This document shows, in pieces, positions 3,024 through 54,214 of a stretch of DNA of 64,000 nucleotides. Both the position numbers and the translations under genes were made by a program. The DNA comes from an uncultured Bacilli bacterium (GTDB lineage Bacteria > Bacillota_I > Bacilli_A > RF39 > UBA660). The notes under the pieces are model-generated. The model made no database searches, was not told where the DNA came from, and saw only the letters and a list, made by a program, of their open reading frames with translations. Numbering within the stretch: the first letter of the stretch is position 1; every line of letters begins with the position of its first letter. Where the stretch lies: NCBI GenBank assembly GCA_934096235.1, contig CAKOLO010000002.1, positions 301,919 to 365,918 on the forward strand, in the 5' to 3' direction.

Positions 3024-3311
3024 TTAATTACACATATTTTTACATTTTTTTTGTAAATTTTTATTATTAAAGTATACGAACGTAGATATTGTTATTATAA
3101 TAAAGATTATATTTATTATTCCATTATTTATTAAATAAAATATTTTAAAATATATTAGTGTTATGTTTATCATAAATAATAAACTATTTAAGAAACTATA
3201 AATTTCTTTTTTAGTGTGTATGTAATTATATGTTGCTTGATATAGTTTCTGCACTATTATTCCATATAAAAAAGAAAATATAAAAGAAATTATTTGTTCA
3301 TTTAGGTCCAT
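3024..3311 (-). CDS. YabQ-like small membrane protein (spore cortex biogenesis)
   Basis: 95-aa hydrophobic protein whose stop overlaps the yabP start (3311); the yabP-yabQ arrangement is conserved. Confidence 0.4.
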   Translation of the reverse strand: MDLNEQIISFIFSFLYGIIVQKLYQATYNYIHTKKEIYSFLNSLLFMINITLIYFKIFYLINNGIINIIFIIITISTFVYFNNKNLQKKCKNMCN

Positions 3312-3598
3312 TATTTAAATAGCCTTGCCATTATATTTTCTGTTCTTATTTTTTTGTTATCATCTAAATAGTTTACTGAATTTATTTTTCCTTTTATAGA
3401 TAGTGTACCTTGAAATGTATCTAGTTTTAATAATTCTAAATTGTCTCCTTTAATAAGTATAGATCCCATAATACTATCTACGAAGAATTCCGAGTCATCA
3501 AAACTATTTAGTTTTTTTATTCCTGAAAGTACAATATTTTTTCTTTCATTTAATGTAATCATATGATTAAATGTTTCGTTTATATCTTTTTTATCCAT
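3311..3598 (-). CDS. yabP: sporulation protein YabP
   Basis: 95 aa; central block LSGIKKLNSFDDSEFFVDSIMGSILIKGDNLEL resembles the YabP family; gene context (yabP-yabQ-divIC) fits. Confidence 0.65.
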   Translation of the reverse strand: MDKKDINETFNHMITLNERKNIVLSGIKKLNSFDDSEFFVDSIMGSILIKGDNLELLKLDTFQGTLSIKGKINSVNYLDDNKKIRTENIMARLFK

Positions 3599-3644
3599 AT
3601 ATTTCCCCCGATACTAAATTTTATGTATAAAATTTAGATATATG

Positions 3645-3669
3645 AAAAAAAGCTACTTAATGTAGCTTT
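3645..3669 (-). terminator. Rho-independent terminator downstream of spoVG
   Basis: Hairpin aaagctac-ttaat-gtagcttt, followed on the minus strand by a T-run (A-run 3645-3651 on plus). Confidence 0.55.
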
Positions 3670-3680
3670 AAGATTACAAA

Positions 3681-3965
3681 TTATTCGTTATCTTCTGTTG
3701 TTTCTTCATCTTCTGCATTTTCATATGCATCAAGAATAGCTTTTTCAAACATTGTTCTTACTTCTTGGTTGATTGGATGAGCTATATCTTTATATTCACC
3801 AACTGGAGTCTTACGACTTGGCATAGCAATAAATAGTCCATTATCACCTTCTATAATTCTAATATCGTGAATAGCGATAGCATTGTCTACTACTACTGAT
3901 GCGATTCCTTTCATACGAGAATTTTCTCTTTCAACCTTACGAATTCTAACTGATGTAATTTCCAT
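3681..3965 (-). CDS. spoVG: septation protein SpoVG
   Basis: [11 protein letters not shown]...[47 protein letters not shown] is a near-canonical SpoVG sequence; acidic C-tail. Confidence 0.9.
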
Positions 3966-4028
3966 AAGTACCTCCTTAACATTTTGTTATTTTAATTATA
4001 TTACAAATATTTTTGAATATCAATATTT

Positions 4029-4244
4029 TTAAGTAAATTTGCTTAGTATTACCTGCTTTATAGCTACATCAGTATAAGTGTATGACTTCAATCCTTTATT
4101 AGTTTTTATCGTAAATAAATTATTATATGTTTTATCTATTGTTCCTTCATAATATTCATGTTTATTTCTTCCAATATTTACTTTTATTTTTAATTTTGTA
4201 CCTTTTAAAGCAATAACATCATTCTTAATTTTATTTATATTCAA
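4029..4244 (-). CDS. veg: Veg-family small protein (biofilm/sporulation-associated)
   Basis: 71 aa; pattern LKIKVNIGRNKHEYYEGTIDKTYNNLFTIKTNKG..SYTYTDVA matches the Veg family (GRrK..eg.i...Yp.vF.i......SY.Y.D). Confidence 0.7.
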   Translation of the reverse strand: MNINKIKNDVIALKGTKLKIKVNIGRNKHEYYEGTIDKTYNNLFTIKTNKGLKSYTYTDVAIKQVILSKFT

Positions 4245-5032
4245 TTTTTATCCTTTCTTGGATATCCAGTGTGCATCATACCATTAATGATGATTCCACC
4301 TATTCCATCACTTCCATATTTAGTTTTTGATAGTAGTTCTTCTATATCTATCTTTTCTGTTTTATCTGTTAAAGCGATAGTTGATGCAATGATTGCTGGA
4401 TCTAATGCATGTATGTTTATTGATTTTGGGCTTGATGCGAATGTTGATTTAGCTTTTATTATGTTTTCGTAATCACTTTGACAAGCACCTGCGATTATCA
4501 CTAAGTCTTCATGACTCTTTTTTACCTTTCTGGCTTCTAGTACTGTTTCTATAAAATATTTACTATTCTTATATGTTTCATTATTTTTTCTTTTTTGATA
4601 GTGTGCATCGTGTCCGGTTATAACTAAAATATCTGGATTATGTGTTATTAAAAGCTTCTTTATATTATTTTTAAACTCATTTTCTTTATATGTGTAGCCA
4701 TAACATTTTATTTTTTGTTCTTTATAAAAACTCATACATTTTTCTAAATATTCATTGTCTCCATCAAGATGTAATATGGTTCCAGGTATATAAAAATAGT
4801 CATCTGTTTTTAGTGTTCTTACTGGATTAATTATTTCTTTTTTTTTAGGAATTGTAGCAAGTATTAAATCATCTTCTTTAGTATCAGCGTATAGTCTTAC
4901 ATCTAATCCTTTTAAATAAATAACATTATTCTCTATTTTATCAATCTTAAATATTATGTCATTACCATACTTTTTTCTTGTAACTAAATCACCTATTTTA
5001 AACATAATTCCTCCATTAAATCTTATGGACAA
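4241..5032 (-). CDS. YabG-like sporulation-specific peptidase
   Basis: 263 aa; size and synteny (next to veg/ksgA as yabG is in B. subtilis); conserved DILVITGHDA-type block. The family assignment is from memory. Confidence 0.5.
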   Translation of the reverse strand: MSIRFNGGIMFKIGDLVTRKKYGNDIIFKIDKIENNVIYLKGLDVRLYADTKEDDLILATIPKKKEIINPVRTLKTDDYFYIPGTILHLDGDNEYLEKCMSFYKEQKIKCYGYTYKENEFKNNIKKLLITHNPDILVITGHDAHYQKRKNNETYKNSKYFIETVLEARKVKKSHEDLVIIAGACQSDYENIIKAKSTFASSPKSINIHALDPAIIASTIALTDKTEKIDIEELLSKTKYGSDGIGGIIINGMMHTGYPRKDKN

Positions 5033-5768: not shown

Positions 5769-6542
5769 TTATATGTTATTTGATATATCTATAAATTCTT
5801 CTATAGATAGTTGTTCTGCTCTTGCTGTTAGGTCTTTATTGTGTTTTCTTAATATTGTTTCTATCTTATTTAGGTCGTATCCTTTAAGATTATTTCTTAA
5901 ATTTTTTCTTTTTTGAATAAATGAATCTTTGATAAGTTTATAAAACTGTTCTTCATTATTAGCTATTAATTTCTTATTTCTTCTAAATTTAATGACTGAA
6001 CTATCTACTTTTGGTACTGGTTCAAAACAAGTTTTACTTACGTTGCATACTCTTTCAATATCAAAATTATATTGTAAGAATACACTTATGGAACCGTAGT
6101 CTTTAGTTCCTGGTTTAGCACTGAATCTATCAGCTACTTCTTTTTGAACCATTATTGTAATTTCGTATGGATTAGATTCTTTTACTATTTTGTTTATAAT
6201 CGCAGTTGTTATATAATAAGGCAAATTGCCTACAAAGTAAAGATTTTTATATTTATTTTGATCAATATAATCATTTATATTAATAGATAGGAAGTCTTTG
6301 AATACTACTGTTAATTTTTTATCATCTATTTGTTCTAGTATTTCTTTAAGTCTTGTATCTATTTCAAAACAAATAATATTTGAATCTTTTTTAATAAGTT
6401 CTTTAGTAAGTGCTCCGGCACCTGGACCTATTTCAATTATTAGGTCGTCTTTTGTAGGATTTATTGACTTAGCTATTTTGTTAATAATATTTTTATCTTT
6501 TAAGAAGTTTTGTCCTAAAGATTTTTTATAGTCAAATTTCAT
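5769..6542 (-). CDS. rsmA: 16S rRNA (adenine1518/1519-N6)-dimethyltransferase RsmA/KsgA
   Basis: LGQNFL start, SAM motif EIGPGAGALT, NLPY catalytic motif (VGNLPYYITT). Confidence 0.9.
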   Translation of the reverse strand: MKFDYKKSLGQNFLKDKNIINKIAKSINPTKDDLIIEIGPGAGALTKELIKKDSNIICFEIDTRLKEILEQIDDKKLTVVFKDFLSININDYIDQNKYKNLYFVGNLPYYITTAIINKIVKESNPYEITIMVQKEVADRFSAKPGTKDYGSISVFLQYNFDIERVCNVSKTCFEPVPKVDSSVIKFRRNKKLIANNEEQFYKLIKDSFIQKRKNLRNNLKGYDLNKIETILRKHNKDLTARAEQLSIEEFIDISNNI

Positions 6543-6543
6543 A

Positions 6544-7095
6544 TTATTTCCATCCTTCTCTTAGTACTTCGAATTCTAAGTTTCTAACTCTACCTATCTT
6601 TTTAACGGCATAATCTTGACTATCAGTAAGTAAATCTATTACATTGCCACTTACGCCTCTATCAAGTACTATTGCTACCATTGGTTCGTTTGATAGTTTT
6701 CCTACATTAAATTTTAGTATTGTTCCACATTGATAGTTTTTACTGCTAGCAACTATTCTAACTTTTCCATATTTTTTATCATTAAAGTAAATTCCTTCTT
6801 TTATAACGTTTGTTCTAGGTGGACAAGCTAAGTATCCTGAACATAATGGACAGTCTCCTGTATAACCTGTAAGTTCTCCCACAAAAGTATAAAGTGGATT
6901 TTGTATTCCTTCTTGATAAAGTGTGTTTTGTGTTTTTTGGATTACATTTTTATCAACAGATTTATCTATCGTATCATTTAAAGCAATAGAAAGAGAACTC
7001 TTTTCATAAGAGCCTTTATTTAATAATAGTAACAAAGAACATATTATTATTGCTTCAAAAGTCATTAATATTCTACTTTTAATATACTCCTTCAT
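6544..7095 (-). CDS. 3D-domain (MltA-like) cell-wall protein, YabE/YocH-like
   Basis: Signal/TM N-terminus; C-terminal 3D domain signature (GDCPLCSGY...VAIVLDRGVSGNVIDLL). Confidence 0.55.
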   Translation of the reverse strand: MKEYIKSRILMTFEAIIICSLLLLLNKGSYEKSSLSIALNDTIDKSVDKNVIQKTQNTLYQEGIQNPLYTFVGELTGYTGDCPLCSGYLACPPRTNVIKEGIYFNDKKYGKVRIVASSKNYQCGTILKFNVGKLSNEPMVAIVLDRGVSGNVIDLLTDSQDYAVKKIGRVRNLEFEVLREGWK

Positions 7096-7987: not shown

Positions 7988-8485
7988 TTATTCAAATTTA
8001 GATTTTATAATTTTTAGTAGTAACTTTGATGTCTTTTCTATATTGATTATGTTGTCTTTACTGACTACTATTAGTGATCCTAGTAAGTCACTATTTACCA
8101 CTATTGGAAGTATAATGTATCTTCCTTCTATAACTAAATTATCATTTAAGTGTAATTCTTCTATATTTTTACATTCAAAAATCTTTCTTTCTTGAATTAG
8201 TCTATCTAGTTTTTGATCTATTATTTCATTATTTTTATTGATTATTTTATTATTAATTACTAAGCTAATATCATAAGATGTTTCACTTATAAAGCAATTT
8301 ATAATACTTATTATTTCTTGTTCATAATTTTTTAAGTAAGAGTATTTTTCTAGTATTATTTTTTCATCTTCAAGTCTTATTTGAAAGTCATCTCCTGTGT
8401 TAATATTTAGACATTTTCTTAGTTCTTTAGGAAGTACTATTCTTCCTAGTTCATCTATTTTTCTTACTATACCAGTTGGTTTCAT
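7988..8485 (-). CDS. spoVT: stage V sporulation protein T (AbrB-N swapped-hairpin + GAF regulator)
   Basis: MKPTGIVRKIDELGRIVLPKELR is the AbrB/SpoVT N-domain; 165 aa with a C-terminal GAF-like region; located upstream of mfd as in Bacillus. Confidence 0.75.
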   Translation of the reverse strand: MKPTGIVRKIDELGRIVLPKELRKCLNINTGDDFQIRLEDEKIILEKYSYLKNYEQEIISIINCFISETSYDISLVINNKIINKNNEIIDQKLDRLIQERKIFECKNIEELHLNDNLVIEGRYIILPIVVNSDLLGSLIVVSKDNIINIEKTSKLLLKIIKSKFE

Positions 8486-21939: not shown

Positions 21940-23850
21940 CTATATATCTAAATTGCTAACATATATAGCATTTTCTTCTATGAATTTTCTTCTTGGTTCT
22001 ACATCTTCACCCATTAATGTTGTAAATATTTCATCTGCTCCCATTGCATCGTCAACAGTTATTTTTCTAAGGATTCTAAATTCCTTTGACATTGTTGTAT
22101 CTCTTAATTCGTCAGCGTCCATTTCACCCAAACCTTTCATACGGGTAATTGTGTATTTTGCATTTTCTGGAAGTGTCTTTAAATATTCATCTCTTTCATT
22201 TTCATCTAAAACATATTTAATATTTTTTCCATACACTATCTTGAATAAAGGGGGCTGAGCCGCATATACATGTCCATTTTCTACTACAGGTTTGAAGAAT
22301 CTATAAAATAATGTTAATAGAAGAATTCTTATGTGTGACCCGTCAACATCGGCATCGGTCATTATTATAATTTTGTCATATCTAAGTTTTGATAAATCGA
22401 ATTCTTCTCCAATTCCTGTACCAAATGCTGTTACTATAGTTCTAATTTCTTCATTGCTTAATGCTCTATCAAGTCTTGCTTTTTCTACATTTAATATTTT
22501 TCCTCTTAATGGAAGAATAGCTTGTGTCATATAATCTCTACCTTTTTTAGCAGAACCACCGGCTGAATCTCCCTCGACTAGGAATATTTCTGATTCACTT
22601 GGGTCTTTACTTTTACAATCTGTTAGTTTTCCATAGAAATTTGTTATTTCTAGGTCACCTTTTCTTCTTGTTAATTCTCTTGCCTTCTTAGCAGCAACTC
22701 TAGCTCTTGATGCAAGTAATACTTTTTCCATTATTGCTTTAGCTTGATCAGGATTTTCTAGCAAGAATTTTTCAAATCCTGCTCCAAAAACATTGCTTGC
22801 AATTTTTCTCACTTCTACATTTCCAAGTTTTGTCTTTGTTTGACCTTCAAATTGTGGATTTGGATGTTTACAAGATATAACCATTGTTATTCCTTCTTTG
22901 ACATCATCTTGTGTTAATGAATCATCTTTATCTTTTAAAAATCCATTACTTCTCGCATAATTATTTATAACTCTTGATAATGCAAGTCTTACACCATCTT
23001 CATGTGTTCCACCTTCAACTGTATTAATGTTGTTAGTGAATGAGTAAACATTGCTTGTATATCCATCATTATATTGCATTGCTACTTCTATACTTATATC
23101 ATCTTCTGAACCTGATACATCAACAATATCATCATGTATTACTTTTTTATTTGCATTTAGTAGTTTTACGTATTCAACAAGTCCTCCGTTATATAGAAAT
23201 TCATCTTTTTGACCGCTTCTTAAATCACTAAGAATTATTCTAAGTCCCTTGTTTAGGAATGCAAGTTCTCTTGATCTTGTTTTAAGTGTCTCGTAGTCAA
23301 ATGTTGTTGTTTCTTCGAATATTGTTGGATCTGGTTTAAATGTAACAGTTGTTCCTGTTCTATTTTCATCACAATCTCCTATTACTTCTAAACTCTTTAC
23401 TGGATGACCACCATTTTCAAATCTTTGATGATAAATTTTTCCATCTCTATATACTTTAACTTCTAACCAGCTTGATAATGCATTAACAACCGATGCACCA
23501 ACACCATGTAGACCACCAGATACTTTATAACCTTTTCCACCAAATTTACCACCAGCATGTAATACTGTAAATATTGTTTCTACAGTAGAAATTCCTGTTT
23601 TTGGATGTATTCCTGTAGGCATTCCTCTACCGTCATCTTTAACTGTAACACTATTATCTTCGTTTACTATAATTTCAATATCATCACAATATCCCGCTAA
23701 AGATTCGTCCACAGAGTTATCCACAATTTCCCAAACTAGGTGATGTAATCCTCTTACACCTGTTGTTCCAATGTACATACCAGGTCTTTTTCTTACCGCT
23801 TCTAAGCCCTCTAATACTTGAATATCATTTACACCATATTCTTCTTTCAT
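21940..23850 (-). CDS. gyrB: DNA gyrase subunit B
   Basis: 636 aa; GHKL ATPase ([16 protein letters not shown]), Toprim [20 protein letters not shown]. Confidence 0.95.
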
Positions 23851-24932
23851 TTACTCACTCCCTCATCTAAATCAAATATTTTTGCTTTTTCTACTATTCT
23901 TTTATTAATATTCTTCAAATCAGTTGTTGTAATGAATACTTGAATGTTTTTATCTAATGATTTAAAGATATTATTTCTATTTTTTTCATCCAGTTCACTG
24001 AACAAATCATCAAGTAGTAATATAGGTTTTATATCATATTTTTCAATAAATATTTTGACTTCTGCTAACTTCATTGCTAGAATTATTAACTTTTGTATAC
24101 CTTGCGAACTAAATTCTTTAGCATCATTTCCATTTTGACAAAATTTATAATCGTCTCTATGAACTCCATATGAAGTCATTCCTATATTAATTTCCTTATT
24201 TCTATTTTTTTTCAGTTCTTTTAGCAATTTTTCTTTGTTATTTTCTTTATAATCTGATACATACTCAATACTTATTTTTTGACTTTTTATGTAGTTTTTA
24301 AATATTTCATTGATATATGAATTGATTAAATCAATATATTTTTTTCTATAGTTATAGATTTTTATGCCTTCATCCACTATTTTTTCATCTAATATATCTA
24401 AATATCTGGAATCTAAATTATTATTTAACATTAGTTTCTTTAAAAATTCATTTTTGTTCTTAATTAATGTATTGTAATTATTTAAATAATAAATATATTC
24501 TTTGTGTAGTTGAGATATTTGTATATTTAGATAATTTCTTCTAGTGTTTGGTGATGATTTAATTAGTTTTAATTCATCTGGAGAAAGCATTATTATCCTA
24601 TATTGAGATATAAAATCGCTAAGTTTTCTTTGAATCTTTGTGTTTATTTTTGTCTTTTTACCATTCTTATCAAGATATAATTCGAGATTCTTTTTAGGAC
24701 CGTAATCAAAATAGAAAACTTTTATTTTAAAAAAATCTTCTCCTTCTTTAATAATCGACATTTCATTACTTGTTTTAAAAGATTTTGCTAAACTACCTAA
24801 ATAGATAGATTCAATTATTGTTGTTTTACCAATTCCATTTTTACCAATTATGATGTTTAAATTTGAAAAATTATCAAAATTTTTTTTCTTGTAATTTCTA
24901 AAATTTAGTAGTTCTATTCTTGTAATATTCAT
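23847..24932 (-). CDS. recF: DNA replication/repair protein RecF
   Basis: Walker [13 protein letters not shown] signature region, D-loop LLLDD. Confidence 0.9.
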
Positions 24933-25020
24933 TTTTAAACCTCATTAACCCCTTTTTTTTGATTTTTCTATCATTTAGGTACACCTACACAACAATTAAA
25001 TTATACCATAAATTAGTACA

Positions 25021-25060
25021 TAAAAAAAGATAATTTTAATTTTAATTATCTTTTTTTGCT
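25021..25060. terminator. bidirectional hairpin terminator between comK-like and recF
   Basis: aaagataatt-ttaatttt-aattatcttt, a 10-bp stem flanked by an A-run and a T-run. Confidence 0.5.
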
Positions 25061-25497
25061 GTTCTTTCATCTAAAACAAATTTTAATCTTGTGGCTCTAA
25101 GAATTTGATTGGATAATGAGCCATATGATAAATCAAATTCCAAGATATCACCGTTCTTAAATAGAATTGCTGACCTATTATTTTCCAATTTGTAGTATTT
25201 TTCAATTTTTTCCAAATTAATCCATATGCAATCTTCTCTTTCTGGTGATGTTGTAGGAAAAAAAATCATTTTTCTACTTTCTTCTACTATTATTGGTGAT
25301 TTGTGAGTTATTCCGAGCATCTTACGAGTTCCATCTTTTCTTCCTTCAAATGAACTGCCAAAATATTCACAACTGTGTTCTAAAATTTCTTGAACTGAGT
25401 TATTAACTATGTATTCACTATCATGTTCTATTACTTTTGATTTGAACTCATCAATTGGAAGAACTAATTGTGTATCATAGTTTATTTCATAATTCAT
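25042..25497 (-). CDS. ComK-family competence transcription factor-like protein
   Basis: 151 aa; the blocks SCEYFGSSFEGRKDGTRKMLGITHKSPIIV and MIFFPTTSPEREDCIWI and FDLSYGSLSNQILRATRLK align with the conserved ComK core of B. subtilis ComK as I recall it (SCRFFGSSYAGRKAGT..ISHKPPIMV / IFLFPTLSSTRPQCGWI / ISYNSFENQVYRTAWLR). Good RBS AAAGGGGG. Confidence 0.7.
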   Translation of the reverse strand: MNYEINYDTQLVLPIDEFKSKVIEHDSEYIVNNSVQEILEHSCEYFGSSFEGRKDGTRKMLGITHKSPIIVEESRKMIFFPTTSPEREDCIWINLEKIEKYYKLENNRSAILFKNGDILEFDLSYGSLSNQILRATRLKFVLDERTAKKDN

Positions 25498-25546
25498 ATT
25501 TTTCCCCCTTTCTAAATATTGCTTACTATGTTAGCACATCACCTTT

Positions 25547-25573
25547 GTCGAAATTTGTCGAATTTTGTCGAAA
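25547..25573. promoter_or_regulatory. three tandem Spo0A boxes (TGTCGAA x3, 10-bp phasing) in the comK-like promoter region
   Basis: cTTTGTCGAAaTTTGTCGAAtTTTGTCGAAaa; exact 0A-box heptamers at 25547, 25557 and 25567. Confidence 0.55.
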
Positions 25574-25612
25574 AATGTAAAAAAAATAAAAAAAAACGAA
25601 TAATTTCGCTTT

Positions 25613-26731
25613 TTAGTAAGTTTTCATTGGTAAAATCAACTCAATTAATTCGTCATTTTCTGCTTCTTTTAAAATTATAGGACTTATTTCACCATTTAAT
25701 AAGATAAATATTTCTTCTTTATTAAATACTTTTAATGCTTCCATCATATATTTAACACTGAATGAAATTTTAATATCATTCTCTGTTTCATTTACAATTG
25801 TTATTTTATCTTTTCCTTTTCCTTCAGTACTTGCTGCTCTAATTATTAACTCTGTTCCTGAAACTTCCATATCTACTATATTTTTATCTTTAGATTGAGT
25901 TAATGATGATGCTGTATCAAGTAAACTGTATAAATCCTTTAAATTAGCTTTGATTTTATGTTTAAATTCTTTAGGAATTGAATTATCAGTGTTTGGATAA
26001 GTTCCATTTAATAATGAAGTTTGGAATATAATATTATTAAATTTAAATAGAGCTTTATTTGGAAATACATGAATTTCTAATTCAGATTCTTTATCGATTG
26101 TTTTAACTAATTCATTGATATTTCTTGCTGGTATTACCATATTAACATTTTCTGAATACATTTCATCCAACTTTATAGTTACTTTTGAAAGTCTATATGA
26201 ATCTGTGGCTACACATTCAAAGATATCTCCTAGTAATTTAATGTTAACACCTGTTAATAATGGTCTGCTCTCTTGAAGTGAACATGCAAAAGATGTTTTA
26301 TTAATTATTTCTTTGAATTTTTGACTATCTAATTTAATTGGATTTTTAACTTCTTCTAATTTAATATTAGGAAAGTCTTCTTGATTAAAGCATGGGAAGT
26401 CATATATTCCTCCACTTTCTGTTTTAAATGATACTTCATTATTTTCAAAGTTTTCTACTAAAATATTTGTGTTTTGTAGTTTGCTTACAGTACTTAATAA
26501 AGTTTTTCCATATATAATAGTACATCCAACTTCGTCAATACTTTTAATTTCTTTTTTATCAATAAATGTTTGTATTGTAATATCATTGTCAGTTGCTGTT
26601 AAATAAAGCCCTTCTTTTGTTAGTTCAAACTTGATACCATTAAGTACAGGAATTATATTTCTTGTAGATAATGCTTTACTTACACAATTTAATCCTTCCA
26701 TTAAAATATTTTTTTCTATTAACATTTTCAT
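25613..26731 (-). CDS. dnaN: DNA polymerase III beta sliding clamp
   Basis: 372 aa; three-domain clamp; directly downstream of dnaA. Confidence 0.9.
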   Translation of the reverse strand: MKMLIEKNILMEGLNCVSKALSTRNIIPVLNGIKFELTKEGLYLTATDNDITIQTFIDKKEIKSIDEVGCTIIYGKTLLSTVSKLQNTNILVENFENNEVSFKTESGGIYDFPCFNQEDFPNIKLEEVKNPIKLDSQKFKEIINKTSFACSLQESRPLLTGVNIKLLGDIFECVATDSYRLSKVTIKLDEMYSENVNMVIPARNINELVKTIDKESELEIHVFPNKALFKFNNIIFQTSLLNGTYPNTDNSIPKEFKHKIKANLKDLYSLLDTASSLTQSKDKNIVDMEVSGTELIIRAASTEGKGKDKITIVNETENDIKISFSVKYMMEALKVFNKEEIFILLNGEISPIILKEAENDELIELILPMKTY

Positions 26732-26876: not shown

Positions 26877-28286
26877 TTATTCACAAATTTTTTCTTTTAG
26901 TATCTTAATTTCTTCTTGAAGTTTTGTATTTGTTTTTAGTTCATTTGAAATTTTTTCGTGTGAGTATATAACTGTTGAATGATCTCTACCTCCAAATTCT
27001 AAGCCTATTCTTTGTAAACTTTCTTCTGTCATTATTCTACTTAAATACATTGCTATCGCTCGAGCATCTGTAACATTTTTCTTTTTCATTTTTCCTTTTA
27101 GCATCGATGCCTCTAAATTGAAGTATTTGGCAACTATATCTATGATTTTAGCTACAGAATTTGTTCTATATACTGTCTTTGGTACAAATTCTTGTAGTGC
27201 ATCTTGTGCTATTTCTAGTGTTACTTCAGGAATATTAAATGCTGCTTTATATGCAACAATTCTTATAACAGCACCTTCTAAGTTTCTTATATCACTTCCA
27301 CAGTTACTTGCTATATAGTTAATAACATCTTCATTTATATCTAAATCATAGTCATTAATCATTATTTTATTCTTAATTATATTCTTTTTAAGCTCTAGTT
27401 CTGGTGGATTAATTGATTCTGTTAATCCCCATCTAAACCTTGTTTTAAGCCTATCTTCTAGGTATTTATAGTCATTTATTGATGTATCAGAAGCAATTAT
27501 TATTTGTTTTTCATTATCATATAATGTATTAAATGTGTTAGTAAATTCTATTTGTGATTTTGTTGCGTTTTCTAGAAATTGTATATCATCAATCATCAAT
27601 ACATCAACATTTCTATATTTTTCTCTAAAAGCTTCTAAATAACTAACATTGTTATCATATTTATTTTTAGCATTTATTATGGCTCTATAGTCATTTGTAA
27701 ATTGTTCTGCAGTAATGTAGAGAACTCTTTTGTCTGAGTGATTTACTATATAATTTCCTATTGCATGCATTAAATGTGTTTTACCTAATCCACTTTTTGC
27801 ATATATAAAATAAGGATTATATAATTTTCCTGGATTTTGTGCTACTGCTAATGCTGTTCCATATGCTAATTTATTGGAATCGCCAACGACAAATGTATCA
27901 AAAGTATATTTTGGGTTAAAATTGCTTATATATTTATAATTTGTTAAATCATTTGCTGTTGATTCTTCTATTTCTTCTTCAATTTCTTTTTTACTTTGTT
28001 TTTTCGGTTTTTCAGCCATTTTTTCAAGTTTTTTTATATCTTTTTCAAACATGTAAGATATTTCACATGTATCACTTGTTATATCGTTTAATATATCTTC
28101 TATTATTGAACTATAATTTTTAGTTATATTTTGTAATAAAAGCTCATTTGTAGGTACTATTATTATTATTTTACTATCTTCATAAGAATAAAGTTTTAGA
28201 TCCTTAAATATGTAGTTATAGGACATTAATGATACTTTATTTTTGATTTTCTCTAGAAATTTTTTCCAAATATCTTCAATATCCAT
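26877..28286 (-). CDS. dnaA: chromosomal replication initiator DnaA
   Basis: 469 aa; Walker A GKSGLGKTHL, sensor/box VII, C-terminal DNA-binding HTH (DHSTV). Confidence 0.95.
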   Translation of the reverse strand: MDIEDIWKKFLEKIKNKVSLMSYNYIFKDLKLYSYEDSKIIIIVPTNELLLQNITKNYSSIIEDILNDITSDTCEISYMFEKDIKKLEKMAEKPKKQSKKEIEEEIEESTANDLTNYKYISNFNPKYTFDTFVVGDSNKLAYGTALAVAQNPGKLYNPYFIYAKSGLGKTHLMHAIGNYIVNHSDKRVLYITAEQFTNDYRAIINAKNKYDNNVSYLEAFREKYRNVDVLMIDDIQFLENATKSQIEFTNTFNTLYDNEKQIIIASDTSINDYKYLEDRLKTRFRWGLTESINPPELELKKNIIKNKIMINDYDLDINEDVINYIASNCGSDIRNLEGAVIRIVAYKAAFNIPEVTLEIAQDALQEFVPKTVYRTNSVAKIIDIVAKYFNLEASMLKGKMKKKNVTDARAIAMYLSRIMTEESLQRIGLEFGGRDHSTVIYSHEKISNELKTNTKLQEEIKILKEKICE

Positions 28287-28438: not shown

Positions 28439-28548
28439 TTATCCACAATATCAACAAATTTACAATTTAATTATTTTTTTAATTGTGGATAACTTGTTGA
28501 TAAGTTAACATAATATTGTGGATATAGTGTTGATAAGTTAACATAATA
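28439..28548. promoter_or_regulatory. oriC DnaA-box cluster
   Basis: Perfect DnaA boxes TTATCCACA (28439-28447) and TGTGGATAA (28484-28492); one-mismatch boxes at 28448, 28495, 28517 and 28528; a 20-bp direct repeat GTTGATAAGTTAACATAATA x2. A further one-mismatch box TGTTGATAA at 26796-26804 lies between dnaA and dnaN. Confidence 0.75.
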
Positions 28549-28612: not shown

Positions 28613-30076
28613 ATGAATAAGAAAGAATTGTTAGAAAATTATTTAAAAAAATTATACAAAATATATATTGAAAAAGACTTTAATGAGTTTGTTAATACGA
28701 TACTAAGTTATAACATAAGGATTGGAGATTATAAGAAAGATATTTCATCAATTTCTAAAAAAATTTTTGACGAAATATTGGTTTTACTTCCTGAAAGTAA
28801 GGCGAAATTCTCATATAAAGAATTTACCAATTTTTATAAGATAAATATAATATATAAAGAATATAACGATCCAACGCCTAAAGTCATAATAGATGTTCCG
28901 GTGTTTATAGAAAACTATGAAAAAATAACAAATAATTTAATAAAATTTTTAATAGAAAATAAAATTAATTCTTATATTAAACTACAAAAAGTATCTCAAA
29001 ATGCTTTACTTGAAATTCGCGTTGATAATGAAGCAGAAGCTAAAAAGATAGTTAATCACTTTAAAACAAATAAAGAAATAGTTCAAGAAATAAAATCTAG
29101 GGTAGTTCCATTTTTACCTGAAGATAATCTACTAGGTTTTTCATATGAATATAAACCATATAATTTTAAAAATTTTTATTATGTTTGTTTATATGAATAT
29201 TTTTCAACACTTAAATCTATCGATAATTTAACTTTGGATGGTTTAGTTGCTTACATAGATAATAAATATAAAGTTGAAAGAAGACTAAATAAAAAGAGAA
29301 TGCTATTATCAATTTATAATAGTATTAGGGTTATAAATGAAGAAGATGATATTTATTCTATGTTTAGATATAATTCTGATATGAATATTGGCAGTATAAA
29401 TCCTAATGAGTTTGATTTAAAACTTGATGAAAATAAGATGATATTTTTTGTTAATAAATTGGATGAAAGAATAATTTCATATGGAAGTGAAGAATATTTG
29501 AATTTAGTTTATTCAAAATTTTATGATAATTTTATTAAAAGAGAAGAGAGTTCTACATATTATGGCTATTTTTATAATATTTTTAGTAAAATTTTATCAG
29601 ATGATTACAAAGATATTGATAAATTATTAGATTTTTCTAATATGCAAAAAGATTATATTTATACTTTAATGATGTTAATATCTAGTTTGTTCTTTGCATA
29701 TAAAAAAATGAATTTTTCATTAAATGATGTTTATTCTATATTAAAATATGTGCTATTTAAAAAATATAAACTAGAAATCAAAATAAAATCTTCAGAAGAA
29801 TATGAAGAAAAGAAAAATATATATATTTTTCCATTAAATATTGAATATGGAAATAAAGTCGTTGATTTAAAAGATAAATCTAAAATAACAGTTAAGGAAT
29901 ATTTTAGGCAAAATAAAATTGAGGATACCATTCCTTTAAATTCTCTTGTATATATGAAAGATGGAAAAATATTAAAGGGAGAAGATTTTTTAAGAGATTT
30001 ATATAAATATATTGGTTTATATGATTCATTTGAAGAATTGAGAAATTCACTAATAAGTTTAATAGAATTTAAATAA
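28613..30076 (+). CDS. hypothetical cytoplasmic protein (487 aa, K/Y/N-rich, no recognisable domain)
   Basis: Long uninterrupted ORF with an RBS-like GGAGATATGGG upstream; no TM segment or known motif. Confidence 0.5.
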   Translation: MNKKELLENYLKKLYKIYIEKDFNEFVNTILSYNIRIGDYKKDISSISKKIFDEILVLLPESKAKFSYKEFTNFYKINIIYKEYNDPTPKVIIDVPVFIENYEKITNNLIKFLIENKINSYIKLQKVSQNALLEIRVDNEAEAKKIVNHFKTNKEIVQEIKSRVVPFLPEDNLLGFSYEYKPYNFKNFYYVCLYEYFSTLKSIDNLTLDGLVAYIDNKYKVERRLNKKRMLLSIYNSIRVINEEDDIYSMFRYNSDMNIGSINPNEFDLKLDENKMIFFVNKLDERIISYGSEEYLNLVYSKFYDNFIKREESSTYYGYFYNIFSKILSDDYKDIDKLLDFSNMQKDYIYTLMMLISSLFFAYKKMNFSLNDVYSILKYVLFKKYKLEIKIKSSEEYEEKKNIYIFPLNIEYGNKVVDLKDKSKITVKEYFRQNKIEDTIPLNSLVYMKDGKILKGEDFLRDLYKYIGLYDSFEELRNSLISLIEFK

Positions 30077-43152: not shown

Positions 43153-43656
43153 ATGAAAAAAATAATATGTGGTATACTTTTTGTAATAGTGATTATACTT
43201 GTGTCCAAGCCAAGGTATAATTTAAGTGGTGATATGGTTAGATTTAGAGTAATCGCTAATAGTAACTCATCTATCGATATATTAATAAAAGAAAAAGTTG
43301 TTAACGAGTTATCAACATTGTTATTTAAGGATTCAAACGATATTAACGAGACACGCAATAATGTAGTTAATAATTTAGATCAGGTAAATTCTAGTATAGA
43401 TAAAGTATTTAGTGAAAATAATTATAATTTAAAATATAAAGTTAGGTATGGCATGAACTATTTTCCTAGTAAAGAATATAATAATATTAAGTTTGAGGCA
43501 GGAGAATATGAGAGTTTAGTTATTGAAATAGGTGAGGCTAAAGGTAATAATTATTGGTGTATTTTATATCCACCTCTTTGTATGGTTGATTATGAAAATG
43601 ATGAAAAGATAGAATATAAATCTAAAATATATGAAGTATTATCTAAATGGTTCTAA
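43153..43656 (+). CDS. spoIIR: stage II sporulation protein R-like
   Basis: Signal peptide; VRFRVIANSNSSIDILIKEKV resembles the conserved SpoIIR block (RFHVIANSDS..Q.LKL.VRD). Confidence 0.5.
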   Translation: MKKIICGILFVIVIILVSKPRYNLSGDMVRFRVIANSNSSIDILIKEKVVNELSTLLFKDSNDINETRNNVVNNLDQVNSSIDKVFSENNYNLKYKVRYGMNYFPSKEYNNIKFEAGEYESLVIEIGEAKGNNYWCILYPPLCMVDYENDEKIEYKSKIYEVLSKWF

Positions 43657-47134: not shown

Positions 47135-47791
47135 GTGAAAGTACTAATTGTAGATGATGAAAAACTTATAAGAGATGTTATTAAAGAATATTGTATTGGT
47201 AATAAATATGATGTATTAGAAGCTGAAAATGGTGTAGAAGCAATTGATAAAGCTAAGGATGCGGATATTATTATTTTAGATATTATGATGCCTAAGATGG
47301 ATGGATTTAGTGCATATAAAGTAATTAAAGAAAGATATAATACACCTACTATTATGTTATCAGCTAGAGGTGAAGAGTATGATAAATTAGCAGGTTTTGA
47401 TTTAGGAATAGATGATTATATGACTAAACCATTTAGTCCTAAGGAATTAATGGCTAGAATAAATGCAGTAATTAAAAGATATAAGGGTGAAGATGATTTC
47501 TATGTATATAAGAATCTCAAAGTAGATTTTTTAGGTCATGCAGCATATATAAATGGAAAAGAATTATTGTTAACACCTAAAGAGTATGATTTGCTTGTAT
47601 ATTTTATAAATAATAAAGGTATTGCTTTATCTCGTGAACAATTACTTAATAATATATGGAATTATGATTATTTAGGAAATGATAGAACGATAGATACACA
47701 TATTAAGATGCTTAGAAATAATTTAGGAGAATATAGAGATTTAATTACCACTGTAAGAGGAATGGGGTATAAATTTGATGATAAAGAATAG
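47135..47791 (+). CDS. OmpR-family response regulator
   Basis: Receiver domain (VLIVDDE, D at ILDIMMPKMDG) plus winged-helix trans_reg_C (GMGYKF). Confidence 0.85.
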   Translation: MKVLIVDDEKLIRDVIKEYCIGNKYDVLEAENGVEAIDKAKDADIIILDIMMPKMDGFSAYKVIKERYNTPTIMLSARGEEYDKLAGFDLGIDDYMTKPFSPKELMARINAVIKRYKGEDDFYVYKNLKVDFLGHAAYINGKELLLTPKEYDLLVYFINNKGIALSREQLLNNIWNYDYLGNDRTIDTHIKMLRNNLGEYRDLITTVRGMGYKFDDKE

Positions 47792-49169
47792 TAAGATTAA
47801 ACATATAGTACTTGGGTGCTTAGTAGCATTTTCATGTTTCATATTACTATTTCTTTTTTTGATGCAGATAGTATTTTTAAATAAGTATTATGAAGTATAT
47901 AAAAAGAATCAATTAAATGATATAGTTAATTCTATTAAGTCTAATGACTCTATGGATGTACATACTCTTGAAGATATAGCATATAATTATGGAATTTGTG
48001 TATCAATATATTCAAATGGGATAATACAAACAATATCAAATACATATAATAAAGGCTGTTTATTTAGTGATAAAACTAGTAGTGATAATTATATAACTTC
48101 TTTTGTAGAAAGTGGGAATACTGAAGATACAAGACTTCTTTATAATAAAAGATTTGGTAATAAAACTATAATTAAAGCATTAAAATATAATGATGAAGTA
48201 TATATATTTTTAAATACTTCTATTCAACCATTGGATTCTTCTATAATTCTTTTAAAGAGCCAATATGGATATATAGCGCTTATAATATTTGGTATATCTT
48301 TAATAATAAGTTATGTTATATCTAGTCAAATATCTAGACCTATTGTTAAAATAAGTGATTCTGCTAAAAAACTTGCAAATGGAGATTTCAATGTATCCTT
48401 CTCAACTGATAGTAAAGTACAAGAAATTAAAGAATTATCAACTACGTTAGACTTAGCTAAAAATGAGCTTTCTAAAACAGATGAATTAAGAAGAGATTTA
48501 ATGGCAAATGTTGGTCATGATCTTAGAACACCGCTTACTATGATAAAAGCATATGCTGAAATGACGAGAGATTTAGAAAGTCAAACTCCTGAAAAAAGAT
48601 CAGAAAATATGAATATTATAATAGAAGAAACTGATAGATTAAATGTTTTAGTAAGTGATATTCTTGATTTATCTAAGTTACAATCTAGTACTTATGAACT
48701 TAAAATAGAAGAGTTTGATCTTAATGAATTAATTAGAAATATTATTAAGAGATTTTATATTCTTATTGATAGTGATGGTTATGAGTTTATATATAATAAT
48801 GATAAAGAAATAATGGTTAAGGCTGATAAGAAGAGAATTGAACAAGTTATATATAATTTACTTAATAATGCGGTTAATTATACTGGTGAAGATAAAAAAA
48901 TATATATAAATGTTATTGATGAAAAGAAGAAAGTTTTAGTTGAAATTAGAGATACTGGTAAAGGTATAGATAAGGATGAAATTAAGTATATATGGAACAA
49001 ATATTATCATAATGAAAGGAAACATAAGAGAAATGCTTTTGGTACTGGTTTAGGGCTTTCTATAGTGAAAACTATACTTGAGAGTCATAATTATAAGTAT
49101 GGTGTTAAAAGCGTTAAAAATAAGGGTACTACATTCTATTTTGAAATTGATAAGAAAAATATGTTATAA
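47775..49169 (+). CDS. sensor histidine kinase
   Basis: Two TM segments, HAMP, H-box (VGHDLRTPLT), N/G1/G2 boxes (LLNNAVNYT, DTGKGI, GTGLGLSIV). Confidence 0.85.
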   Translation: MMIKNSKIKHIVLGCLVAFSCFILLFLFLMQIVFLNKYYEVYKKNQLNDIVNSIKSNDSMDVHTLEDIAYNYGICVSIYSNGIIQTISNTYNKGCLFSDKTSSDNYITSFVESGNTEDTRLLYNKRFGNKTIIKALKYNDEVYIFLNTSIQPLDSSIILLKSQYGYIALIIFGISLIISYVISSQISRPIVKISDSAKKLANGDFNVSFSTDSKVQEIKELSTTLDLAKNELSKTDELRRDLMANVGHDLRTPLTMIKAYAEMTRDLESQTPEKRSENMNIIIEETDRLNVLVSDILDLSKLQSSTYELKIEEFDLNELIRNIIKRFYILIDSDGYEFIYNNDKEIMVKADKKRIEQVIYNLLNNAVNYTGEDKKIYINVIDEKKKVLVEIRDTGKGIDKDEIKYIWNKYYHNERKHKRNAFGTGLGLSIVKTILESHNYKYGVKSVKNKGTTFYFEIDKKNML

Positions 49170-50720: not shown

Positions 50721-51306
50721 TTGTTTAATTACAATTATTTTTATTTTTTTAATAAAATATATTGACACATTATAAATTATTTGATAATATATATTTGTCC
50801 AATAGATAATTAAATGTTATATCTATTATATAATGATTTATTTAAGTTTAATTATTTTTATAAACTTATATAATAATATAAATGGTTTAATTATATTAGT
50901 GAAAAAGTCTATAAATTTTTTACTTATTTATATTGGATATAATAATATTATTTTTCAATTATATGTTCTTAATTAGTATTAATTTACTAACTTAATTATG
51001 TATCTATCTTATTAATAATATCTTATATCAAAATAATATAAATAATAAAAATATCTTATTAATTTAAGAAATAGATGTCTTATCTACTAAGGACAAATGT
51101 TATAACGTTGAGAAAGTAAAACTCAAAATGATAAGAAATTATGCTAAATACTGATAATATTTAGAAGTATTTATATTAATTTAAATATTAATATAAATGA
51201 TTCATAATTTATTTTCGGAAACTCGAAACAATCTTGTTTTATCAGAACGGGTTGTTTTTTGTTTGTTTAAGAATGTGAAAAGTGATATTATAATTATGGT
51301 GAATAT

Positions 51307-51693
51307 ATGAAGCATATTAAGAAGTATTTAAGATTTTATATAATGTTTGGTGTTACTGCTTTAATTTCAATTTATTTAGTATTTTGGGGACCTAGTTCTA
51401 AGTATTTAGCAGTATATAAAGATAATATGACTATAGAGTATGATATGAATTCTAAAGAAGGGTATTCTTGGAGTTATGAGTCTAGTAATGATAATATTAA
51501 ACTTTCTAGTAATGAAGATGATAAATGGGTCTTTGAACCTAATAAAAATGGTAATACAACCTTAACTTTTTATTATAAGAATGGTGAAAATACATTATAC
51601 AAGATAATATATGGTATTAAAGTTTTAGGTAATAAAATCATTTGGACTAAAGGAGAAGGTATTGGCCTTACTAGCTATCCTAATCCTTATTAA
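51307..51693 (+). CDS. small membrane-anchored/secreted protein, possibly chagasin-like (I42) protease inhibitor
   Basis: N-terminal TM/signal; EGYSWSY and GNTTLTFYYKNG resemble the NPTTGYxW / G..L.F.Y pattern of the I42 family (tentative). Confidence 0.35.
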   Translation: MKHIKKYLRFYIMFGVTALISIYLVFWGPSSKYLAVYKDNMTIEYDMNSKEGYSWSYESSNDNIKLSSNEDDKWVFEPNKNGNTTLTFYYKNGENTLYKIIYGIKVLGNKIIWTKGEGIGLTSYPNPY

Positions 51694-51768: not shown

Positions 51769-52854
51769 ATGGAACCATATAAAGCTAAAAAATTACCTTT
51801 TAATTATGAACTTGATAACTCTATTATAAAACTTTTATGTGATGCGAAAGAAGCATATGGAGAATATAAAGGTTTTCTTAAGAGTATGACATTTGATTAT
51901 AAATCCTTTTTAGAATCTGCTTTTATAATTGATACATATTATTCTTTTAAAATTGATAATGCTAAGATTACAAAAAATGATATGTTTTTAATGCCTTATA
52001 AGAATAAAAATAATACTGTTATACAATTTAATAATATTAAGATGGCTTTATTGTCAGGTATTTCTTATGCTAGTAAGAGTGGATTTTCTATTGATGTATT
52101 TAATAAAATAAATAAAGCTCTTTTGACTAATTGTAAGAAGGATAATTCTACTAAAGGTAGTGGACATTTAAGAAAGACTCAAACATATATATTAAAGCCT
52201 GGTTTAGCTGGATCTAGTGTTTCATTTGTACCACCTTTGTATAATGAATTAAATGGTTATATGAAGAATTTATGTGATTATATGAATGAACCTGGTGAAC
52301 CTGATTTTATTGCTTTAGCTATAACACATTATCAGTATGAAAAACTACATCCATATTTAGCTGGTAATGGTAAAATTGGTAGACTTACTATACCTGTACA
52401 ATTATCTTTTTATAAAAAAGAACCCCCAATACTATTTATATCAGAAGCAATAGATAATTTAAAAAATACGTATTTCACTTTGTTAAGTGATGAAAATGAT
52501 GAGAAGTTTCCAAAATTTATAAAATTCATTTTAGAATGTATTATTAGTCAATGCAATATAAATATTAAAAGAATTAAAAAACTTAATAAAATATATACTA
52601 AAGATTTAGAAGATTTTAAAATTACTATAGGTGGAAGTACAATTTATAAAGCATATCCTGTTATAGCTAAGAGAATAGTATTTACTACTAATGATATAGT
52701 AGAAGAATGTAAATTACATATTAATTCTGTTAATAAAGTTCTAAACAAATTAGTAGAACAGGGATACTTAGTTAAAGAAAAAAAGAAAGGTACTAATAGA
52801 GTAACTTTCACTTATACTAATATGTATGATATATTAACTAATACTTCTAATTAA
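51769..52854 (+). CDS. Fic/Doc-family protein
   Basis: Fic motif HPYLAGNGKIGR (consensus HPFx[DE]GNGR) at roughly residue 190. Confidence 0.75.
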   Translation: MEPYKAKKLPFNYELDNSIIKLLCDAKEAYGEYKGFLKSMTFDYKSFLESAFIIDTYYSFKIDNAKITKNDMFLMPYKNKNNTVIQFNNIKMALLSGISYASKSGFSIDVFNKINKALLTNCKKDNSTKGSGHLRKTQTYILKPGLAGSSVSFVPPLYNELNGYMKNLCDYMNEPGEPDFIALAITHYQYEKLHPYLAGNGKIGRLTIPVQLSFYKKEPPILFISEAIDNLKNTYFTLLSDENDEKFPKFIKFILECIISQCNINIKRIKKLNKIYTKDLEDFKITIGGSTIYKAYPVIAKRIVFTTNDIVEECKLHINSVNKVLNKLVEQGYLVKEKKKGTNRVTFTYTNMYDILTNTSN

Positions 52855-53364
52855 ATTTATATAATAATGCACATTATTACTTGTTATATCTTCAAAGTAA
52901 ATATGTGCTTTTTTGTTTTCATTAATTAGGGTACAAATATTATTAAAGTCTAGTTTATTTAACTTAATATATTTATTTAAAAAATCTATATTTTTAGAGT
53001 ATTTATACATAAACATATTAATGAATTCTCTATGATAAAATTCTATATTACTATAATAGTATTTATCTGATAACAATATTTTATTATATTTATTATTTAG
53101 TGTTTCACTTAGAATATATCTTATTTTTAATTCACTAATATTTAATTTTTCTTTTATGAATGAAATATAGTTATCTAAATTAAATATAAATTGTTCTTGA
53201 AGAGAAATAAGTTTTTCTTTATGGATAAGATGAGAAGTAACTATTATACTAGAATCTTTTATTTTACTCATTATATCATCTAGTAGTTTATCATTTATAA
53301 AACTTATTATATCAGAACTATTGTTAATATATTTTTTTAATAAATAATCATTATAGTTCATCAT
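52834..53364 (-). CDS. hypothetical protein, translationally coupled to the upstream XRE regulator
   Basis: Strong GGAGG RBS inside the 3' end of the XRE gene; 14-bp overlap; no recognisable domain. Confidence 0.4.
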   Translation of the reverse strand: MMNYNDYLLKKYINNSSDIISFINDKLLDDIMSKIKDSSIIVTSHLIHKEKLISLQEQFIFNLDNYISFIKEKLNISELKIRYILSETLNNKYNKILLSDKYYYSNIEFYHREFINMFMYKYSKNIDFLNKYIKLNKLDFNNICTLINENKKAHIYFEDITSNNVHYYINLIRSIS

Positions 53365-53599
53365 TATCCTCCATAAATTTACTTATAGGTGTATTTAAAA
53401 CTATAGATATTTTATATAAATTAGTTATACTTATACCAGTTTTACATTTATTACTTTCTAAATTACTTATTAAAGAAACTGAGACATTGATTAATTCAGC
53501 AAGTTTTTCTTGTGTTATTTTTTTACCATTTAATATAGTTTTATTTCTATATTTCTTTATATTTTTACCAATTATCTTATTTAATTTATCTTGATTCAT
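53351..53599 (-). CDS. XRE-family HTH transcriptional regulator (paralogue 1)
   Basis: HTH_3-like QEKLAELINVSVSLISNLE; shares the C-terminal motif NLYKISIVLNTPISKF with paralogues 2 and 3. Confidence 0.6.
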   Translation of the reverse strand: MNQDKLNKIIGKNIKKYRNKTILNGKKITQEKLAELINVSVSLISNLESNKCKTGISITNLYKISIVLNTPISKFMEDNDEL

Positions 53600-53700
53600 A
53601 GTTCACCTAAAACAATTATAGAATAAATATCATTAAATGTATAGTACTACATTACATAATTAAATGTTAAAACAATGTAAAATATTACTTAGGTGAAAAG

Positions 53701-53961
53701 ATGACTAAGTTTAAGAGAGATTTTAATTTTGATGAAAATATAATTAAGACAATAGCATATAATGTTATTAAATATAGAAAGTTAAGTGGTATAACTCAAG
53801 AACAGCTTGCGATAGATATAGGTGTATCTCCTGAATTTATTAGAAAGTTTGAGAGTACTAGAGGAAGTGAAGGATTATCACTTATGTCTTTATATAAAAT
53901 ATCAGTTGTTCTTAATGTATCTATTGATAAATTTTTTGAATCAATAGAAGTTAACGATTAA
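53701..53961 (+). CDS. XRE-family HTH transcriptional regulator (paralogue 2)
   Basis: QEQLAIDIGVSPEFIRKFE HTH and SLYKISVVLNVSIDKF; divergent from paralogue 1 with a 100-bp spacer containing inverted repeats (TTACAT...ATGTAA). Confidence 0.6.
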   Translation: MTKFKRDFNFDENIIKTIAYNVIKYRKLSGITQEQLAIDIGVSPEFIRKFESTRGSEGLSLMSLYKISVVLNVSIDKFFESIEVND

Positions 53962-54214
53962 TAAAAAACTTTTCTATTGGGACATTTAATATTAGACTTA
54001 TCTTGTATAAATTATATATACTTATACCTTGGTAAGTCTTTTTACTTTCAAGATTACCTATTAATGACGTAGATACATTTGCTAGTTCTGCTAAATGTTC
54101 TTGTGTTAAATCTTTTACATTTAAGCTATATAGTTTTCTATAATATTTAATGTTTTTTCCTATAATAGTATAAATTTCTTTTTCATCTTTAAAATTGAAT
54201 GTATCTTTCATCAT
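53951..54214 (-). CDS. XRE-family HTH transcriptional regulator (paralogue 3)
   Basis: QEHLAELANVSTSLIGNLE and NLYKISLILNVPIEKF; convergent with paralogue 2. Confidence 0.6.
   Translation of the reverse strand: MMKDTFNFKDEKEIYTIIGKNIKYYRKLYSLNVKDLTQEHLAELANVSTSLIGNLESKKTYQGISIYNLYKISLILNVPIEKFFINR

Follow-up and report, generated by a model that had tools for sequence, protein, structure and literature searches.

Three phased Spo0A-type boxes in the promoter of a short, origin-proximal ComK-family gene of an uncultured RF39-like bacterium

What controls a gene for a ComK-family protein that lies between dnaN and recF, next to the replication origin, in an uncultured gut bacterium? The stretch analysed here (the window; 64,000 nucleotides of contig CAKOLO010000002.1, assembly GCA_934096235.1) carried such a gene, herein called comK, which encoded a protein of 151 amino acids (aa) and was preceded by three tandem boxes of the type recognized by Spo0A (0A boxes). 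Phosphorylated Spo0A (Spo0A~P) probably binds these three boxes, which would take the place of the −35 element in a σA promoter, and thereby activates a short ComK without the MecA degron and the activation tail.

The 9-mer TTTGTCGAA occurred exactly three times in the window, at 25544–25552, 25554–25562 and 25564–25572 (plus strand), against 0.24 occurrences expected, and none of 100 shuffles reached three. The inner heptamer TGTCGAA, counted on both strands over the 64 kb, was found only in these three copies, arranged in tandem at 25546–25572 with exact 10-bp phasing. The triple box and its phasing were thus as described in the initial annotation, while the span given there (25545–25575) was off by 1–3 bp; chance, or the dispersed repeat that had been considered there, was ruled out, since the 64 kb held no further TGTCGAA and not one of the 100 shuffles had as many as three copies. 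The promoter and the gene that it precedes had the following components:

25566–25572, minus strand: distal box of 0A type (box 1), covering roughly −52 to −46, with the gene strand reading TTCGACA; CGACA core in 38–40 of 40 promoters
25556–25562, minus strand: middle box of 0A type (box 2), covering roughly −42 to −36; TCGACA 22 bp from the −10 element; core in 34–40 of 40 promoters
25546–25552, minus strand: proximal box of 0A type (box 3), covering roughly −32 to −26, with the −10 hexamer 12 nt downstream; core in 39–40 of 40 promoters
25528–25538, minus strand: extended −10 element TGTGcTAACAT (TRTG-n-TAnnAT), conserved at columns 34–45 of the 40-species alignment
25503–25510, minus strand: ribosome-binding site AAAGGGGG, 5 nt upstream of the ATG; G-run conserved at columns 65–69
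25042–25497, minus strand: comK, gene of the short ComK-family regulator, 151 aa, with start codon ATG at 25495–25497

Read on the gene strand, the spacer between dnaN and comK consisted of the dnaN stop codon, a hairpin plus U-run, a T-rich tract, TTCGACAAAA TTCGACAAAT TTCGACAAA, 12 nt, and TGTGcTAACAT; the −10 hexamer was located at 25528–25533, with the predicted transcription start near 25520, and a leader of approximately 15–20 nt led from there to AAAGGGGG and then to the ATG. The TCGACA hexamers of boxes 3, 2 and 1 lay 12, 22 and 32 bp from TAnnAT, and thus no box was usable as a normal −35 element; no −35 hexamer was found at 17±1 bp from the −10 element in any of the species aligned, and a simple σ70 scan stayed silent on this promoter because of the missing −35. 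In Bacillus and Clostridioides difficile alike, the core bound by Spo0A is TGTCGAA, with base contacts at G2, C4 and G5 (PMC3485338), and active Spo0A is a dimer that leaves a 25–30-bp footprint on two boxes 3 bp apart (PMC2731898). The comK promoter displayed both the 7-bp core, in three copies, and the head-to-tail arrangement of boxes 3 bp apart.

The same intergenic region was then compared across relatives, one genome being taken per species. The scan returned 67 species-level loci, 51 of which shared the order dnaA–dnaN–comK–recF–gyrB, with ComK identity as low as 43% and DnaA identity as low as about 45%, and the remaining 16 were Bacillaceae with comK elsewhere in the chromosome. Many contigs from human-gut metagenomes (Hadza, Nepal and others), as well as metagenome-assembled genome (MAG) GCA_964325505.1, carried the exact ComK of the window, always with the same neighbours. 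Public labels on records with comK in this slot were uncultured Bacilli, Mollicutes, Mycoplasmatota, Tenericutes, Erysipelotrichaceae, and Clostridium sp. CAG:524 and CAG:1000, on contigs of up to 1.2–1.5 Mb. Some MAGs with the locus (L045, L057 and L060) were labelled Bacteroides helcogenes, Muribaculaceae or Ignavibacteriales, and these are probably mislabelled or contaminated bins.

Forty distinct promoters, from loci with ComK 57–100% identical to that of the window, were aligned. All 21 box positions were intact in 29 of them, the CGACA cores were retained in 34–40 of the 40, and indels were absent both among the boxes and from the stretch that joins box 3 to the −10 element; this 12-nt spacer was invariant in length, and its sequence drifted (0.05–0.27 bits at five positions). 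A more distant group (ComK 43–49% identical) had two boxes left, the proximal one 11 nt from a TATAAG −10 element. Synonymous divergence (dS) from congeners was near saturation in the flanking genes (0.6–1.4), and thus the conservation of the promoter was selective and not a matter of recent ancestry; as judged from this alignment, strong purifying selection acts on boxes and spacing alike in about 40 species. The ratio of nonsynonymous to synonymous divergence (dN/dS) for comK against congeners was 0.03–0.15, by which estimate the gene itself is under purifying selection.

For a search of spo0A in metagenome contigs, the recognition helix VERAIRHAIE was back-written in AT-rich codons. The search recovered clostridial Spo0A plus a distinct group of Spo0A proteins of 250–270 aa with the signature LHELGxPSHIKGY, encoded on contigs of 22–29% G+C that carried the public names "Bacilli bacterium", "Mycoplasma sp. 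CAG:472", "Firmicutes bacterium CAG:460" and "Candidatus Onthocola" (Bacilli incertae sedis). Many spo0A loci of this AT-rich group were preceded by TTCGACAAAATTCGACA, in the same orientation and phasing as at comK, while the clostridial spo0A loci had a single TGTCGAA in the opposite orientation. The two genes were met together in MAG GCA_050259235.1, in which (i) comK occupied the dnaN–recF slot (locus L060, JBLNAG010000002.1) with TTCGACAAAATACGACA upstream and (ii) spo0A (P0438; PF00072 plus PF08769) was located on JBLNAG010000005.1 with TTCGACAAAATTCGACA upstream; tandem TTCGACA-N3-TTCGACA thus preceded both genes, and the two contigs were tied by the whole-genome shotgun prefix JBLNAG01. 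Tetranucleotide signatures did not discriminate spo0A loci of the window's genus from others (r of about 0.7–0.89, against about 0.8 for the clostridial controls). The tandem arrangement before the relatives' spo0A resembled the spo0A autoregulation sites of B. subtilis and C. difficile (PMC12090719, PMC3485338), and these boxes, unlike those at comK, lay farther upstream of the apparent −10 element.

Several neighbours of spo0A were recorded during this search. In related AT-rich gut lineages, spo0A was found inside a glycolytic operon composed of gap, a gene for a pilin-like Laminin_G protein, pgk, a glycosyltransferase gene, tpiA, spo0A, gpmI and pyk, at the following positions:

6001–6762 in loci L201–L210, 4001–4765 in L223, 1501–2262 in L213–L222: spo0A of the glycolytic operon

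In one human-gut species with the AT-rich-lineage type of Spo0A, a species not tied to the lineage with comK in the slot, comEA–comEC directly followed spo0A. The window itself encoded a single-AAA ClpC-like protein (62546–63886, minus strand; Clp_N plus AAA plus lid, about 438 aa in public assemblies) and a Zn-peptidase (61831–62496, minus strand); homologues of the two, 45–50% identical, adjoined spo0A in three metagenome contigs (L176, L082 and L108), and no spo0A stood beside the window pair.

The window also encoded SpoIIR, YabG, YabP, YabQ, SpoVG and a SpoVT-like AbrB-family protein, with the respective genes (yabQ, yabP, spoVG, yabG, spoVT-like and spoIIR) located at 3024–5032, 7988–8485 and 43153–43656 of the window, in a genome of only about 1.4 Mb; several of these proteins fell short of the NCBIfam equivalog cut-offs, which is to be expected in a lineage that evolves fast. 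Spore formation has been predicted for RF39, with spo0A treated as an absolute requirement (Field et al. 2024, PMC10868615), and no spo0A entries were found in the portion of that study's supplementary tables that was searched. The initial annotation had read the repeats as targets of Spo0A, and this reading gained support from the conservation in about 40 species, from the sporulation genes in the window, and from the same boxes before spo0A in one MAG with comK in the slot.

The assignment of the 151-aa protein to the ComK family, made in the initial annotation from sequence blocks, was borne out by a profile search: its match to the Pfam family ComK (PF06338) had an E-value of 6.7e-46 and a score of 156 bits (cut-off 22.3), and residues 2–146 covered profile positions 3–151 of 152, i.e., the full length. 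The core blocks FGSSxxGRKxGT, HKxPI and FFPTxS, likewise named there, were invariant in 34 aligned homologues and also aligned with B. subtilis ComK. BLASTP gave 39% identity between the two proteins over 155 residues and left the last ~27 residues of the B. subtilis protein without counterpart in that of the window. A loss at the C-terminus had been described before and held in the alignment, though not at the size of about 40 residues given for it: the length gap to B. subtilis ComK was 41 aa, and about nine of these were N-terminal. The AlphaFold2 model had a predicted local distance difference test (pLDDT) score of 92; no NCBIfam model matched the protein, and no solved structure was related to it by sequence. 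The family label was already public, since NCBI lists a near homologue as "comK family protein [Clostridium sp. CAG:1000]", and no literature was found on ComK together with RF39, Mollicutes or Tenericutes.

In B. subtilis ComK, the C-terminal tail holds the MecA/ClpCP degron FMLYPK... (PMC8138137) and is required for comG activation but dispensable for DNA binding (PMC3128618); the protein of the window lacked this degron and activation tail. It resembled in this respect ComK2 of B. cereus, a ComK domain without the C-terminal ~22–27 residues needed for activation (PMC3128618). B. cereus ComK2 differs in that it coexists with a full-length ComK1 and has another chromosomal place; it acts negatively on comG and may control unrelated genes (PMC3128618). 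No second ComK was seen here.

The minus-strand gene order across the window was dnaA (26877–28286), dnaN, the 151-aa open reading frame (ORF), recF, gyrB and gyrA. The immediate surroundings of comK were as follows:

25613–26731, minus strand: dnaN, upstream neighbour of comK, with Pfam DNA_pol3_beta domains
25591–25614, minus strand: intrinsic-terminator hairpin after dnaN, with U-run at 25575–25590; −8.8 kcal/mol, z = −4.3
~25020–25059, minus strand: AT-rich hairpin terminator between comK and recF; −10.6 kcal/mol, z = −3.7, equalled by 0 of 200 shuffles
25000–25010, minus strand: candidate extended −10 promoter of recF, TATGGTATAAT, a consensus match read from the sequence
23847–24932, minus strand: recF, downstream neighbour of comK, with a 4-nt overlap with gyrB

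The placement of comK between dnaN and recF agreed with the initial annotation. The same gap is filled in Bacillus and Staphylococcus (dnaA–dnaN–yaaA–recF–remB–gyrB) by the S4-like gene yaaA/rlbA, whose protein family is unrelated to ComK; neither yaaA/rlbA nor remB was present in the dnaN–recF–gyrB cluster of the window. The hairpin after dnaN was retained in relatives with differing stem sequences. The hairpin before recF overlapped the comK stop codon and, with an A-run before and a U-run after it, was formally bidirectional, as had been proposed. A consensus terminator scan missed both hairpins, because it needs at least three G-C pairs and the genome has 25.7% G+C. With terminator hairpins on both sides, comK would be a stand-alone unit driven by the box-containing promoter.

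The GC skew changed sign at about 28 kb, gene orientation flipped at the same place, and perfect and near-perfect DnaA boxes were clustered at 28439–28536, directly upstream of dnaA; comK was therefore located about 3 kb from oriC and co-oriented with replication, in line with the origin-proximal position first assigned to it. DnaA boxes were also sought at the comK promoter, where none was present. The gap between rpmH and dnaA, the usual place of oriC, was filled by a 487-aa ORF (28613–30076, plus strand) without Pfam or NCBIfam match, and the DnaA-box cluster was squeezed between this ORF and dnaA.

Of the known systems, that of B. subtilis comes nearest: its comK is under direct Spo0A control, with Spo0A~P itself binding PcomK, at some sites that activate and others that repress (Mirouze et al. 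2012, PMC3297582). Both systems have a ComK-family gene with several Spo0A boxes in its promoter, which would link the sporulation phosphorelay to ComK, and they differed as follows: (i) B. subtilis comK has five imperfect boxes (1–2 mismatches each), three activating ones upstream and two repressing ones, whereas the window gene had three perfect boxes, all in one phased array that takes the place of the −35; (ii) B. subtilis comK is subject to K-boxes, to inputs from Rok, CodY, AbrB and DegU, and to proteolysis through MecA/ClpCP/ComS, whereas neither a K-box nor a MecA degron was found in the window system; and (iii) the window gene, unlike B. subtilis comK, lay in the dnaN–recF gap of an uncultured gut order with reduced genomes. 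The spoIIG and spoIIE promoters of B. subtilis, in work attributed to Satola, Baldus, Moran and Spiegelman, reportedly have a −35-like hexamer 21–22 bp from the −10 element and 0A boxes over the −35, with Spo0A contacting region 4 of σA. The comK promoter resembled this geometry in that a −35 was missing at 17 bp, a −35-like hexamer stood at a distance of about 22 bp from the −10 element, and 0A boxes overlapped that region; it differed in that spoIIG and spoIIE are said to have two weak, high-threshold boxes at the core promoter, against three perfect boxes plus a TRTG extended −10 element at comK.

The predicted comK promoter would be of the σA type, with an extended −10 element (TRTGnTAnnAT), no usable −35, and positions −52 to −26 filled by three head-to-tail Spo0A boxes. 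Spo0A~P would bind the array cooperatively and at a low threshold, because all three boxes are perfect and in phase. The array would stand in for the −35, with Spo0A recruiting or activating the σA-RNA polymerase, activation being expected because the array abuts the −10 element at a fixed 12-nt distance and replaces the −35. ComK would thus be switched on at entry into stationary phase or sporulation. Its control would be transcriptional rather than proteolytic, because the protein is without the MecA degron and the activation tail, and its output may differ from the classical activation of comG and comE.

The serious rival, which has a real though minor chance of being correct, is that Spo0A~P represses: the extended −10 promoter would be constitutive, boxes at −52 to −26 would block RNA polymerase by occlusion, and ComK would be made in growth and turned off at commitment to sporulation. 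TRTG extended −10 promoters can in general function without a −35 element, and box 3 overlaps the −35 contact position. At B. subtilis PcomK, site R1, which overlaps the −35, is repressing (PMC3297582), and Spo0A represses the phage φ29/Nf A2c promoter via tandem boxes 3 bp apart over the core promoter (PMC2731898). Occlusion, however, needs no fixed distance to the −10 element, yet the 12-nt length was invariant in 40 species, which suggests a stereospecific contact with RNA polymerase; moreover, the lack of a −35-like hexamer at 17±1 bp extended to every species, and the boxes had the same orientation before spo0A genes, where positive autoregulation is the norm. By analogy, activation appears favoured over repression, because a spacer fixed in length and drifting in sequence, together with a missing −35, marks activators in contact with σ region 4, such as Spo0A at spoIIG and spoIIE and PhoB at the pho boxes.

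Several points weigh against activation of a competence-type regulator by Spo0A at this locus. With respect to the promoter, box 3 sits where σ region 4 would, so that the positions fit repression of the occlusion type equally well, and boxes that are perfect and of high affinity typify low-threshold targets, activated or repressed alike. With respect to the protein, the window ComK is without the C-terminal region that B. subtilis ComK needs for activation (PMC3128618). With respect to its targets, the K-boxes that the initial annotation had suggested looking for were missing, with no AAAAN5TTTT in 25498–25612 and no paired K-box anywhere in the window, and the late competence genes (comG, comE and comF) were absent from the window and from 10 kb on either side. 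With respect to the organism, spo0A of the window's own species was not located, being absent from the window and from 10 kb beyond either end, and a machine-learning study gave RF39 MAGs a sporulation probability of 0% (PMC12536801). We infer both the binding of Spo0A in the species of the window and its sign, activation versus repression.

Binding of the repeats by another regulator, either an OmpR/PhoB-type response regulator or the ComK-like protein itself acting on its own promoter and on spo0A, is unlikely. The window did encode an OmpR-family pair (response regulator at 47135–47791, kinase at 47775–49169), and winged-helix response regulators typically bind direct repeats of 10–11-bp period beside the −10 element; the ComK fold resembles LytTR domains, which are binders of direct repeats, and B. 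subtilis ComK autoregulates (PMC3297582). The repeat, however, is the exact 7-bp Spo0A core three times over, is unlike K-boxes or LytTR repeats, and also precedes spo0A, a classical autoregulated gene. Spo0A of related genomes, where found, keeps the recognition helix SRVERAIRHAIE, a conservation partly imposed by the search pattern, and a Spo0A with that helix would bind these sites whatever else binds them.

Very unlikely is a role in replication control, in which Spo0A, bound about 3 kb from oriC, would help to block initiation during sporulation, in the manner of B. subtilis oriC, and the proximity of comK would be incidental: the locus does adjoin the origin, as marked by the skew flip and the DnaA-box cluster, and Spo0A~P can block replication via 0A boxes at origins (PMC2731898), but the boxes lie downstream of dnaN and outside the DnaA-box regions, TGNCGAA showed no excess in the dnaA upstream region or the dnaA–dnaN spacer, and the fixed register to the −10 element, like the conservation of the boxes along with comK, speaks for transcription.

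Further features of the window lay apart from the comK locus. A shortened OLE RNA was found at 56763–57244 (minus strand; 482 nt against a 616-position model, 207 bits), a short form that fits the "variant 2" described as typical of the RF39 clade (PMC11332333). Judged by this RNA, and by CAG-1000 being a family of RF39, the bacterium is probably RF39-like. Right after the OLE RNA on the same strand, a 175-aa ORF without Pfam match (56223–56750) may encode its OapA partner. A PGK RNA motif (51072–51164, plus strand, 82 bits) preceded not pgk but a 128-aa chagasin-like peptidase-inhibitor I42 ORF (51307–51693) plus a Fic gene, and the Fic gene was adjoined by a cluster (52834–54100) in which three small genes of the HTH_3 (Xre) type accompany an unannotated 176-aa ORF, perhaps a small island of the mobile or toxin-antitoxin-like kind.

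RF39-like bacteria occur widely in the guts of humans and animals, and they are uncultured and endowed with genomes of roughly 1.2–1.5 Mb, and their sporulation and DNA uptake are disputed; the box array before comK and the same boxes before the relatives' spo0A argue for a live Spo0A pathway in the lineage. If Spo0A~P does activate comK through this array, the direct Spo0A–comK link of B. subtilis would be no peculiarity of Bacillus. The cis-element of about 30 bp plus the 151-aa regulator make up a compact module that is approachable without culturing the organism, and the array offers a natural "ideal" three-site Spo0A operator for studies of cooperative binding. More doubtfully, the short ComK may be a principal direct output of Spo0A, in a minimal developmental circuit in which a low-threshold three-box promoter would fire an origin-proximal regulator; ahead of sporulation or in its stead, this regulator would drive DNA uptake or recombination, or else a programme that has nothing to do with competence. 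In that case "Mollicutes-like" organisms long called non-sporulating would own a conserved developmental switch from Spo0A to ComK. The position at the origin would then render the ComK circuit sensitive to gene dosage and hence to replication, and the ancestral role of ComK might be that of a Spo0A effector, not that of an autoregulated bistable switch.

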